A stretch of DNA of 64,000 nucleotides, taken from positions 6,682-70,681 of the forward strand of contig JAZRNH010000045.1 in assembly GCA_045648025.1 (NCBI GenBank), in the 5' to 3' direction. Source of the DNA: Clostridia bacterium. Lineage in GTDB: Bacteria; Bacillota; Clostridia; Christensenellales; UBA1242. The notes under the pieces are model-generated. The model was not told where the DNA came from, did no database searches, and was given only the letters and a program-made list of their open reading frames with translations. Position numbers and translations under genes: made by a program. Below, piece after piece: positions 28,045 to 40,950 of this stretch (position 1 is the stretch's first letter; each line of letters starts with the position of its first letter).

Positions 28045-31000
28045 ATGTCTTTCACTTCAATCACATTATTAGCATCAAAATTAATCGGAGCTCAAACTCT
28101 TGAACCAGGCGGTCTCGCTTTTGGTTCTCCTATTTTATGGCTTTTGACATGGGTTTGGGAAGGTATCTGCTTGGGTATTTATAACCTTGTTAGATGGCTT
28201 CTTGCAATTGTTGACTTTATGCAATACTTCATTCAGAAGCTTATTGGTTTAGACTATTGGCTCAACCGAACCTATTACACTTTGGAGGGTGCTATTGAAG
28301 CGGATTTGATTTTCGGATTCCTCTATAGCGAAACCGTTCAAAAAGTGTTTAGAGCAATGGTAGCTGTCTTTTTTGCACTTTTGATTATCTTCACAATTTA
28401 TGCAATCATCAGACAAGAGTGGAGATACATCATGGGTAAGGATTTCGGAAACGGAACCGGCAACTCAAAGACACTTATCTTCAGAGAGTCAATCAAAGCT
28501 ATTGCAATTGTTCTTATTTTCCCAATTGTTCTTATGATTGGTGTTATTTCAGCAAATGCTATCTTAGCTTCACTGATTAAAGCTCTCAACATTGACACCT
28601 CGTCAACACTGGGTGGTCAATTGTTCCAGATTGCTTCACAAAATGCGGTCAAGTATGAAAAGTATGCAAACGGTGGTGAGCGAACTTCAGTCTCCGACGA
28701 AGTTACATTCTACATCGATGATGATACGAAAAAATATATAACAATGTCCTCCGGCAGTGCTGATGCTACACTGGTTGATAGGGCAACGACCTACGAAGCA
28801 TTCCTCGAAAAAATATCAAATGCAACCAAATATACAGTAAACACAATGTTTGAAGAAGTTAACCCTTCAAAAGAATCTTCTTTCAATGGTTATTGTGCAA
28901 GACTTGTTAGAGATGGTGAACCATATTATGTCATGGTAAAATGTTCAGATGATGACAATGGAACAAATGGCAGATATGCAATGGGTTATTATCTCAAAAA
29001 TGTTCTTCAAGTAAAAGTTGTTACTTCTGAAGATTCTGCAGGTTTTGGTGGTGCAGATGATTTTTCTAACAAAATTGGAACCGATGGTTTTATTTCAAAC
29101 TTTAACTTAAAAGAATGTTATTCAGATGATATTGCTGATGCTTGTTATCACACTTGGAACTATGCAAGTATCTATGAAAGAACATTTGAATTCGAAGATG
29201 CAGAAGATTACCTTGTTACAAAGAGTGGTAACTCAATCAAGGTGACAATGGACGGTTCAACAGTTTCAAAGATTGGTGAAGGTCCAACATCTTCAGAATT
29301 AATTTCTGCACTTGGTCTTGGTGTAACAAATGCAAAAGTTATGTATAACTCAGACCAAATTTCACCTTATTTTGATGGTGGACAACATGGTGTTGTTCAA
29401 ATGCAAGCAGAGTATATGGTTATGTCAGAAGTTGTTAACTATATGGCAGAGAGTAACCTTAGACTTTATATGCTTGACATCACATCTGACCTTATTGACT
29501 GGGGTGGTCATGGAAGCTATTATGTAGATTCAAGATGGATTGGTTCAGATGACTCAGGAAATGTTAAATACTCAACACTTGTTGATGGTGGAAGCACAAA
29601 AACAACACTTCCATTTGTAATTTCTTACAATGACAACTGTAACGAAACAGAAATGGGAAATGTTTTATACTTTGGTGATAAAATTGCAAATGGCAACGAA
29701 ATCAAAGGTGCAAATTACATTATGTGCCTTAAAGTTGAAGGTATGAAAGACAATGCTGGCAATATGTTAAATGCAAAGTTTATTCCACTTGTAAATAACA
29801 AAACATTTACAGATCCATCAACTGGAAGTCAATATAACTTCAAATCAAACTATTATGCTTCAAACTACCGTGGTGTAGTTCTTGCAAAGGGTTTATTAGA
29901 TTCTGGTGCAACAAATGCATACCGTGGTGAACCAACATATTTGGTTAGCGGTGCAAAAACTGAAAAAGATAAGATTGCTGGTAAAGATATTCCATATTAC
30001 TTTGATATGGAAACAATTGGTGGATTCAACCAATTTGTTGAAGATAGTGGAACAGTTGTTATGAATGGCAACACCGTTGAAGGTCTTGAAGTTCCTCTTA
30101 GAGCAGCAAACTATTCATATAGTGTTTCAAAAGTATCTGGAGCAACAGATCATACTTATCAAATCAAAAAACATACTGCTGAGGAAGATGGCACAACCAC
30201 TACCACAGATCAGTCTGTAACCGAAGATATCATTAGAAACTTGCAGATTAATATGAAACTTTCAACTGGGGTTGTTTCGATTGGTTCATATGCTGGACAA
30301 TCTGTTTCTTATGGTTCAAAGGTATTCTACTTATTCACACATTTAAAAGGAGCTCAAGCATTCTACTTTGTTGTTTCTGCTGATAGCAGCAATGGACAAT
30401 TGCAATTGTATTCATACACAGCAAATAGCACAGAAGTTGTTGATGCAGCTAATCCAAACTTACTCTATTATGAATATGTTGATGGAGATGTTTGGAGTGT
30501 ATCATCATCAACAATCAGTTCAACTTCAAGATTCTACAAGATTATGTATGACTATAAGAGTTCAGTTGGAACTCCTATTGAATTGCTCGACAAAGTTGTA
30601 GATGCACAAGCAACTCCAAACTATTTTGATTATTCAAAATATTCAAATGGAAAAGCTGTTTATACAACAGTTGATATGCAAAGTATCAATGAAAGTGGTT
30701 TTTCTAAAACACTTTATGTTAATGGAACATTTAACACAACTTCTGCAACACTTATGAATCTTGGATTTGATGGTGAAGGAGTTCCTGCTGTTAGATATGC
30801 TGACCCATATGTTCCAGATTATCCTTCTAGCAATGTACATGATAAATTTGAATATAGAACAGACCATTCTGATTCAATTCAAAAATCAAAAATGGTAAGA
30901 TTCTATTTGTATGATTTCTATAATGCTTCTGTTGGTGGAACCATTAAGAAATATGATATTGATAATGACAGTTCTCCAATTTCTGGTTCAGAAAAACCAA

Positions 31001-40950: not shown

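Follow-up and report, generated by a model that had tools for sequence, protein, structure and literature searches.

Gene content of the locus

The 64,000-nucleotide (nt) stretch of a Clostridia bacterium genome analysed here (contig JAZRNH010000045.1, positions 6,682 to 70,681; hereafter the window) contains, at 22.3-59.6 kb, a compact type IV secretion system (T4SS) gene cluster that includes an uninterrupted gene for a protein of 4301 amino acids (aa), referred to below as the giant. The reading that best accounts for the observations, and that we consider probable, is that the giant is one of three paralogous subunits of the VirB6 type, and the largest among them, in a minimal monoderm T4SS that is fixed in the chromosome of an uncultured gut Clostridia lineage and has a VirD4 coupling protein, a VirB4 ATPase, a surface protein of 757 aa and two VirB2-like pilins as its other components. 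The features of the cluster and the parts of the giant are listed in Table 1.

Table 1. Predicted components of the T4SS cluster and subdivisions of the giant (positions in the window).
Feature	Position	Strand	Evidence
757-aa protein, signal-like N-terminal helix, C-terminal membrane anchor, probable surface component	22324..24597	-	sequence
VirD4-type coupling protein, 654 aa	24641..26605	-	Pfam T4SS-DNA_transf E 1e-43; NCBIfam conju_CD1115 252.7 bits (cut-off 250)
VirB2-like pilin candidate 1, 104 aa, two hydrophobic helices	26908..27222	+	Pfam T4SS_pilin E 1.4e-5, 25.5 bits (cut-off 26.6)
VirB2-like pilin candidate 2, 115 aa, two-helix	27393..27740	+	Pfam T4SS_pilin E 2.2e-4
Giant, predicted split-core VirB6-like T4SS membrane protein, 4301 aa	28045..40950	+	open frame, ribosome-binding site, promoter-like motif, homologues
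Giant, core half 1, aa 1-185, helices 27-67, 96-129, 142-180	28045..28599	+	hydropathy, MMCAP2_0566 positions 9-147, AlphaFold2 (AF2)
Giant, inserted domain, aa 186-1150, Tyr/Asn/Asp/Gly/Ser/Thr-rich, acidic, probably extracellular	28600..31494	+	profile gap, composition
Giant, core half 2, aa 1151-1305, helices 1157-1196, 1205-1244, 1268-1302	31495..31959	+	NCBIfam, AF2
Giant, Lys/Gly-rich juxtamembrane segment, aa 1306-1400, PGG.L..KAV common to three paralogues	31960..32244	+	BLAST
Giant, acidic Ala/Glu/Lys/Gln-rich tail, aa 1401-3000, conserved blocks ~1545-1860, 2420-2890	32245..37044	+	composition, orthologues
Giant, ~4.5 tandem ~90-aa repeats, aa 3095-3530	37327..38634	+	unit alignment
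Giant, conserved basic C-terminal domain, aa 3531-4301	38635..40947	+	orthologue identity, motifs
VirB4-type ATPase, 895 aa	41076..43763	+	NCBIfam VirB4_plasma (Mbov_0397 ICE ATPase) 594 bits (cut-off 590); Pfam P-loop_TraG, AAA_10
Paralogue 2, 3901 aa, split core	43789..55494	+	helices 41-170, 3567-3711; BLAST; NCBIfam both halves
Paralogue 3, 1354 aa, split core	55521..59585	+	NCBIfam MMCAP2_0566 E 1e-20 at aa 640-798; BLAST

The giant gene and its reality

The window has a G+C content of ~31% and translates cleanly with genetic code table 11. The open reading frame (ORF) of the giant, already recognized in the preliminary description of this DNA, comprises 4301 open codons without an internal stop; its ATG start lies 8 bases 3' of GGGGGA, a candidate ribosome-binding site, and is preceded by a promoter-like sequence (TATGTTATAAT). 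Two strong terminator-like hairpins, one per strand, are located between the pilin 2 gene and the giant (27746-27837) and close the preceding gene, suggesting that the pilins and the giant belong to separate transcription units. An extended -10-like motif, TATGTTATA(A)TA, is found upstream of both the giant (27927-27940) and virB4 (41040-41053), both on the + strand. This coincidence is only weakly above chance, with two matches obtained in 8 of 100 shuffles, and TATGTTATA may mark a type of promoter common to both genes.

An ORF of this size could result from the fusion of neighboring genes in annotation or from a chimeric contig, and some features of related loci would fit such an origin: in a minority of them the gene is divided, for example into ORFs of 2300 and 1039 aa or into four fragments, and the contig of one close relative begins within the giant gene. 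Nevertheless, an artefact is most improbable, and we conclude that the ORF is real because a full-length homologue (P0025, 4156 aa) from a different assembly is 89% identical to the giant over aa 1-3415 and 86% identical over aa 3309-4301, and because intact orthologues exist elsewhere. Full-length orthologous ORFs of 4110, 4539 and 4580 aa are present in other species, five ORFs of more than 4600 aa reach past the fetched DNA, and at least 8 species have an intact ORF of more than 4000 aa. The alignment of eleven giants is colinear from end to end. The identical protein also has a record on a 79-kb NCBI contig; an exact search with the 1354-aa protein of the window retrieved no contig record. 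The possibility of a chimera, raised at the outset, thus finds no support in the independent assembly or in the orthologues.

The layout in four parts proposed in the preliminary description is borne out by the hydropathy scan and by amino acid composition. The first 185 residues contain three hydrophobic helices (~aa 41-59, 104-122 and 152-170 in the scan) with a basic loop, IRQEWRYIMGKDFGNGTGNSK (aa 122-142), between helices 2 and 3. The following region, aa 186-1150, consists to 48% of Ser, Thr, Asn, Tyr, Gly and Asp, and leads to a second hydrophobic module around the motif ATIPLDEG (aa 1197-1204, nt 31633-31656). The remaining tail is 47% Ala, Glu, Lys, Gln, Arg and Leu. The short repeats that had been noticed in the tail were recovered as well, namely ANGTEEQKAA (nt 32335-32364 and 32404-32433) and GVDxxxMxxxQ[LM]AQA (nt 33613-33657 and 33697-33741), both within 3-4 nt of where they had been placed, and so were the five hydrophobic Gly/Ala segments (aa 3108-3126, 3218-3236, 3305-3323, 3402-3420 and 3499-3517).

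A membrane core split by a large insertion

The two hydrophobic modules had been described as separate entities. Both are present, but profile comparison indicates that they are the halves of one predicted six-helix domain, homologous to the CDS16/MMCAP2_0566 proteins of mycoplasma integrative and conjugative elements (ICEs). The first 200 residues of the giant match the first half of the MMCAP2_0566 profile (322 positions), and aa 1153-1305 match positions 185-315 of the same NCBIfam profile (E 4e-21) as well as Mbov_0396 (CDS16; E 3e-10). A spliced core construct, in which aa 1-195 are joined to aa 1125-1320, aligns in one stretch with positions 9-315 of the 322 in MMCAP2_0566 (E 7.7e-19) and with positions 18-303 of the 306 in Mbov_0396 (E 2.3e-11), and also shows a weak match to the conjugation membrane protein pLS20_p028. 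The single-stretch alignment of the construct implies that the modules form one domain and that the ~950 aa between them are inserted into a single loop. Both halves are well conserved among the orthologues: half 1, with identities of 0.52-0.68, is among the most conserved parts of the giant, and half 2 shows identities of 0.57-0.65, with ATIPLDEG conserved.

The insertion falls between positions ~147 and ~185 of the MMCAP2_0566 profile, that is, in the loop between helices 3 and 4. It has a net charge of -48, its first half is conserved and its second half variable among the orthologues, and it has no match in Pfam. This middle domain is probably best read as extracellular.

The homology of the core bears on the assignment of the giant to VirB6. 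CDS16 has been named, in a recent review, the likely VirB6 equivalent of mycoplasma ICEs, and the T4SS literature treats conjugation membrane proteins of the CDS16/MMCAP2_0566/pLS20_p028 type as the VirB6 equivalent (PMC12857230). Transposon insertions in CDS16 abolish ICE transfer, showing that this protein is essential for the process (PMC6030558). With regard to the general hallmarks of VirB6 proteins, at least five long hydrophobic helices and clustering with VirB4, the giant has six predicted helices, and genes for both VirB4 and VirD4 are adjacent. The AF2 monomer model of the core, for which an alignment of 46 family sequences was needed (an alignment of 10 gave a pLDDT of 50), contains six helices of 34-41 residues with a pLDDT of 78.8 and a pTM of 0.71. 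When this model was compared by Foldseek with 350,542 PDB chains, TrwI/VirB6 of plasmid R388 occupied ranks 1-3, 5 and 6, with DotA at rank 19; the identity of the top-ranking chains was verified as TrwI, not TrwJ.

Several observations weigh against this assignment. The structural matches are weak (E 0.55-1.2, probability 0.33-0.69, TM-score 0.28/0.36), no match to PF04610 (TrbL/VirB6) was found in the giant with Pfam at E<=0.1, and hhalign of the core profile with TrwI gave a probability of 0.3, that is, no signal. The cut-offs curated by NCBIfam are not reached (68-76 bits against 90 and 40-44 against 70), so that the giant is best regarded as a distant homologue of MMCAP2_0566/CDS16 and not as a member of the family as curated. 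Pfam, NCBIfam and PHROG scans of the whole giant yielded CDS16-family matches alone, with none for the insertion or the tail; phmmer of the whole giant against PDB sequences gave no match, and the family profile retrieved from PDB sequences no VirB6, only low-complexity Lys/Glu matches. Taken together, the homology to the CDS16 family, the position of the gene directly upstream of VirB4, the arrangement of the helices and a structural signal that is weak but specific, with TrwI at the top of the PDB matches, make it probable that the core is VirB6-like, as had been proposed, even though no profile signal to PF04610 or TrwI is seen.

Paralogues in the cluster and the wider family

By profile and BLAST similarity, the 3901-aa and 1354-aa ORFs downstream of virB4 are paralogous to the giant, and their cores are split in the same way. 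The larger one contains a Tyr/Ser/Asn-rich acidic insertion of ~3400 aa (net charge -181), followed by a Lys-rich tail of 190 aa after the second half of the core. The smaller one has an insertion of ~470 aa and a basic tail of 570 aa, and is similar to the giant with BLAST E values of 5e-30 and 4e-21. In addition, a weak zinc-ribbon-like CxxC signal is seen at aa 1675-1707 of the 3901-aa protein, and the 1354-aa protein is 97% identical in close relatives; for the giant, the only full-length close relative found is 86-89% identical and may come from other assemblies.

A profile built from the three spliced paralogue cores retrieved from metagenomes 2052 cluster representatives at E<=1e-3, 312 of them at E<=1e-30. 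A scan of one genome per species identified 22 loci, all in metagenome-assembled genomes of uncultured Clostridia-type bacteria from ruminant, human, mouse and rabbit guts. Parsing was possible for 144 of the best 150 of the 2052 representatives, and all 144 have a split core. The length of the insertion in these proteins ranges from 323 to 3573 aa (median 888) and that of the tail from 105 to 5687 aa (median 921); tails of more than 1500 aa are found in 40 proteins, insertions of more than 1500 aa in 23, and both in 2. The largest member of the family has 7309 aa. This protein is of the same length as a giant surface protein of the Hodor megaplasmids reported in a 2026 preprint, but its sequence is that of an ordinary orthologue, with a tail rich in Ala, Glu and Lys and no sign of the S-layer or MBG repeats described for the megaplasmid protein, and no link between the two is made here. 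A literature search found no paper describing a giant split VirB6-like protein.

Orientation in the membrane

The distribution of charges around the core is consistent among 46 family members. The loop at aa 68-95 has a charge of -3.0, the loop at aa 123-151 a charge of +3.2 (positive in 100% of the members), and the 60 residues downstream of the last helix a net charge of +3.0 (positive in 89%), whereas the insertion is acidic. This bias, combined with three helices per half, predicts that the N-terminus is inside, the insertion outside and the tail inside. The same contrast is apparent in composition: in all three paralogues the insertions are acidic and consist to 44-48% of Ser, Thr, Asn, Tyr, Gly and Asp, whereas the tails are 47-56% Ala, Glu, Lys, Gln, Arg and Leu and basic at the end. 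In several relatives (loci L002, L013, L014 and L020) parts of the tail are encoded as stand-alone ORFs, which contain neither a signal peptide nor a hydrophobic segment. The tails of the giants in loci L017 and L018 have additional hydrophobic segments of their own, and these come in pairs. On the strength of the charge bias, the compositional contrast and the signal-less stand-alone ORFs, the tail is probably cytoplasmic.

The prediction draws on the positive-inside rule and a monomer model, which calls for caution. In the solved R388 structure, most of the VirB6 helices predicted to be transmembrane are actually periplasmic (PMC12857230), so that the counting of helices may mislead. The ambiguity in the helix count of the second module that was pointed out in the preliminary description exists in the hydropathy scan, which permits four spans (1159-1177, 1182-1200, 1219-1237 and 1274-1292), but not in the AF2 model, where there are three helices and 1157-1196 forms a single one. 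Should aa 1182-1200 be a separate span, the tail would be placed outside.

With such a seventh span, the same core would carry an extracellular tail acting as a surface fibre or mating-pair stabilizer, with the Gly/Ala segments entering the partner membrane, by analogy with the C-terminal domain of F-plasmid TraG and the proposed surface-exposed extensions of Anaplasmataceae VirB6 proteins. Apart from the hydropathy scan, this arrangement would be in line with the fast divergence of the tail and its variable length and repeat number, as is often the case for contact surfaces, and with the lack of a recognized VirB8/VirB1-type wall-spanning part in the cluster, which requires that something reach outward; moreover, Ala/Glu/Lys/Gln-rich sequences are common in Gram-positive fibrillar surface proteins. 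Against it stand the Lys-rich stretch that follows the last helix in 89% of the members, the three helices of the AF2 model, the stand-alone tail ORFs without an export signal, the composition of the tail, opposite to that of the insertion in all three paralogues, and the Lys-rich sequence that flanks the hydrophobic repeats on both sides. An extracellular tail accordingly appears rather unlikely, and a cytoplasmic one is assumed in the model below.

Organization of the tail

The tail begins with the juxtamembrane segment shared by the three paralogues, where aa 1145-1449 of the giant align by BLAST with aa 632-950 of the 1354-aa protein. Conservation along the tail is uneven: among 11 orthologues it amounts to ~0.27 over aa 1300-1800, 0.34 over aa 2600-2800, less than 0.1 over aa 3000-3500 and ~0.32 over aa 3500-4301, the last value being similar to that of the insertion. 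The least conserved part (identity <0.1) includes the tandem ~90-aa repeats, each of which comprises a 30-aa Gly/Ala hydrophobic segment and a Lys-rich linker, with a net charge of about +28 per 200 aa. The repeats are visible at the protein level only, as TRF detected no DNA-level tandem repeat and self-BLAST of the tail was empty. There are five Gly/Ala segments in the window's giant, three in the 89%-identical P0025 (aa 3090-3390) and none in orthologues with 40-50% identity; the hydrophobic repeats are thus lineage-specific and variable in copy number. The difference in repeat number and the contig of a relative that starts inside the gene suggest strain-level variability.

The C-terminal domain is 27-51% identical across the orthologues and contains invariant motifs including AAMRNxERDFG and PxAVQQR. 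It has no match in Pfam or PDB, and a word-indexed protein search returned family members or their fragments only; the spliced-core profile likewise retrieved only fragments or family members in this search. In locus L020 this domain is a separate ORF of 780 aa, and a separate, signal-less ORF of 1039 aa in L002, L013 and L014 shows homology to aa 2570-2765 of the giant, a conserved block. The tail is thus apparently modular, its parts being either joined in one protein or encoded on their own. Each of the separate tail ORFs (L002 16877-19993, L014 6620-9739 and L020 20624-22963) begins with a start codon of its own, and those of L002 and L014 are also preceded by a ribosome-binding site each.

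No family or function could be assigned to the ~3000-aa tail from Pfam, PHROG and PDB scans, which is another point against the proposed interpretation of the giant as a whole. In the preliminary description, the tail was likened to a phage tail tape-measure protein and described as long helical sequence. As a ruler, or as an injected channel-former, it would set the length of an extracellular tube or be threaded through it. The resemblance that gave rise to this idea is compositional (Ala/Glu/Lys/Gln-rich stretches interrupted by Gly-rich hydrophobic segments), and is accompanied by one weak, bias-dominated match (E 0.002, 19 bits) that aligns a Lys-rich tail region of the family with a phage tape-measure chain. 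However, there is no PHROG match at E<=0.01 and no Pfam match in the giant or in 10 orthologues, neither a tape-measure nor a coiled-coil or other family having been detected, and no phage tail genes are found nearby, the neighbors being T4SS and housekeeping genes. Nor can the tail be one long helix: it contains 8% Gly, and its Gly/Pro-free runs have a median length of 7 and a maximum of 72 residues, with 31% of the tail in runs of at least 30. Finally, the conserved length expected of a ruler is not observed, given that the tail varies from 105 to 5687 aa across the family and is divided among separate genes in relatives, and the hydrophobic segments behind the analogy are not conserved. The tape-measure reading is thus largely refuted and, in our estimate, very unlikely; it was rejected here.

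Chromosomal fixation and conservation of the cluster

The cluster is embedded between housekeeping genes, with comEC, holA, rpsT and murI on one side and lspA, rluD and tig on the other. The order holA-orf-M28 peptidase-rpsT-murI-p757-VirD4-pilin-pilin-giant is kept in 14 species-level loci, and every locus with enough flanking sequence shows the holA-to-giant order; a partial left-hand set is found in L005 and L024, of which the latter is an outlier. In close relatives the right flank continues as lspA-rluD-tig-clpP-clpX and, farther on, mraZ-rsmH-penicillin-binding protein gene.

Compared with the window's copies across species, VirD4 is 79-92% identical (61% in L024) and VirB4 79-85% (63% in L020, where the assembly has gaps), which makes these ATPases as conserved as ribosomal protein S20 (rpsT, 78-98%) and more conserved than holA (61-83%). 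The giant, in contrast, shows 34-52% identity, and the syntenic 757-aa protein, which has no family match in Pfam or NCBIfam, 29-49%. Both pilin candidates score just under the Pfam T4SS_pilin cut-off but are conserved in all related loci, candidate 1 with 58-88% identity in 16 of them, and the orthologue of candidate 2 in L002 has a weak precomputed match to PF18895. According to a 2025 review, Gram-positive T4SSs lack VirB2 pilins, with the exception of Patescibacteria. The same site and gene order in 14 species, together with the conserved ATPases, imply vertical inheritance under purifying selection, and the pattern as a whole suggests a selected machine with fast-evolving exposed parts and not a recently acquired mobile element.

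The alternative is that the cluster is an ordinary ICE, or the remnant of one, and the giant merely its mating-channel protein for DNA transfer. VirD4, VirB4 and the CDS16-like parts indeed all come from conjugation families, the best-matching models are those of mycoplasma ICEs, and relaxases can be unrecognizable, as in mycoplasma ICEs and Hodor megaplasmids. Nevertheless, neither an integrase, a transposase or a relaxase nor a repeat boundary turned up among the window ORFs of at least 150 aa, all of which except the last (63332-63937) were scanned with Pfam, this not being a full search; the site between rpsT/murI and lspA and the gene order are identical in 14 species; and the conservation of the ATPases, which equals that of S20 and exceeds that of holA, fits vertical inheritance under purifying selection. 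We therefore regard an ICE as unlikely, and the fixed chromosomal site suggests a machine owned by the host.

Two further observations concern the host and the flanks. In the close relative with locus L026, the genes for MraZ, RsmH and the penicillin-binding protein (21665-24065) follow clpX and engB in a region that corresponds to the DNA beyond the right edge of the window; the presence of these genes implies that the host has a peptidoglycan cell wall. The host is thus walled, yet its T4SS resembles those of mycoplasmas, which lack a wall, and the cluster shows neither a wall hydrolase nor a VirB8. A single tRNA gene (11582-11653, - strand) is the sole Rfam match at the gathering threshold in the window.

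A proposed model of the T4SS that includes the giant

In the scheme that we consider probable, the six-helix cores would oligomerize, possibly mixed with the two paralogues, to form a channel or stalk above the VirB4 and VirD4 ATPases. The acidic Tyr/Asn/Gly-rich insertion would project through the cell wall as the external contact or adhesion part and would stand in for components of the VirB8/VirB1 type, neither of which was recognized in the cluster by Pfam and NCBIfam scans, with the 3901-aa paralogue as the main outward arm. The tail would be cytoplasmic, tethered to the inner leaflet by the Lys-rich Gly/Ala hairpin repeats, and the basic C-terminal domain might be the place where the ATPases or the substrate dock. 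Confidence in the scheme is tempered because the oligomer, the passage of the insertion through the wall and the docking function of the tail are all inferred.

A bolder possibility, which we put forward tentatively, is that the cluster is not a conjugation system but encodes an organelle derived from a T4SS, which would have been domesticated, would be passed on vertically and would define this lineage of gut Clostridia. The three giant VirB6 paralogues, one of them expanded outward by 3400 aa and another inward by 3000 aa, might then build, together with VirB2-type pilins, a heteromeric device for cell-to-cell contact or transfer, with a function conceivably comparable to that of the T4SS that Patescibacteria need for living on their hosts. 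If this were so, the cluster would be the second pilin-bearing T4SS in monoderm bacteria and its VirB6 proteins the largest known.

Among the core subunits of T4SSs, VirB6 is the one least well understood, and the role of the extended VirB6 domains is open (PMC12857230). The family of the giant takes this extension to the extreme, with 4301 aa in the window and up to 7309 aa elsewhere, and a single locus combines proteins expanded in two different ways. The fixed site, the conservation of the ATPases, the VirB2-like pilins and the size of the family suggest that an abundant group of uncultured Clostridia of the gut and rumen depends on a T4SS for something other than the spread of a mobile element.

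Comparison with known systems

The closest relatives of the giant among characterized proteins are CDS16 (Mbov_0396) and MMCAP2_0566 of mycoplasma ICEs, which show homology over the whole ~320-residue polytopic core. Their genes, like that of the giant, immediately precede the gene for a Mbov_0397-type VirB4, and, like the proteins of the window, they belong to a minimal set with VirD4 and without recognizable VirB8 or VirB1 (PMC12857230). The CDS16 proteins, however, are contiguous, have ~300 aa and are encoded on an ICE, whereas the giant is split by 950 aa, carries a 3000-aa tail, scores under the NCBIfam cut-offs and is fixed in the chromosome of a walled host.

With VirB6/TrwI of R388, its best, albeit weak, structural match in the PDB, the giant shares the bundle of long hydrophobic helices and the location of the gene beside virB4, but neither sequence nor profile comparison reveals a similarity to TrwI or PF04610. 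Extra hydrophilic central and C-terminal domains are also known from the extended VirB6 proteins, such as TcpH, Orf15 of Tn916, TraG of F and VirB6-1 to VirB6-4 of Anaplasmataceae (PMC12857230). These known extended forms have ~700-2800 aa, whereas sizes of 4301-7309 aa are reached in the family of the giant; the insertion of the giant lies inside the core, and proteins of the giant-insertion and giant-tail types occur in one locus.

Several VirB6 paralogues in tandem are a feature of Anaplasmataceae. The comparison with these proteins made in the preliminary description is apt as an analogy, in that three paralogues with large hydrophilic extensions (4301, 3901 and 1354 aa) flank virB4 in the window. 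The likeness is one of architecture alone: the giant has no PF04610 signal, and rickettsial sequences were not compared directly. Phage tape-measure proteins resemble the tail in composition only, and the giant shows neither homology to them nor their phage context, continuous helix and conserved length.

A monoderm chromosomal T4SS with VirB2-like pilins, VirB4, VirB6 and VirD4 that is apparently owned by its host is known from Patescibacteria, namely Saccharibacteria, where the system has been shown to be essential (PMC12857230). It belongs to another phylum and additionally includes VirB1, VirB3, VirB8 and six pilins, and no giant VirB6 has been reported for it. Relative to all these systems, what is new in the gut Clostridia is the size of the predicted VirB6-like proteins, the split core, the presence together of paralogues expanded outward and inward according to the predicted topology, and the combination of these features in a chromosomally fixed T4SS of a walled Firmicute with its own candidate pilins.

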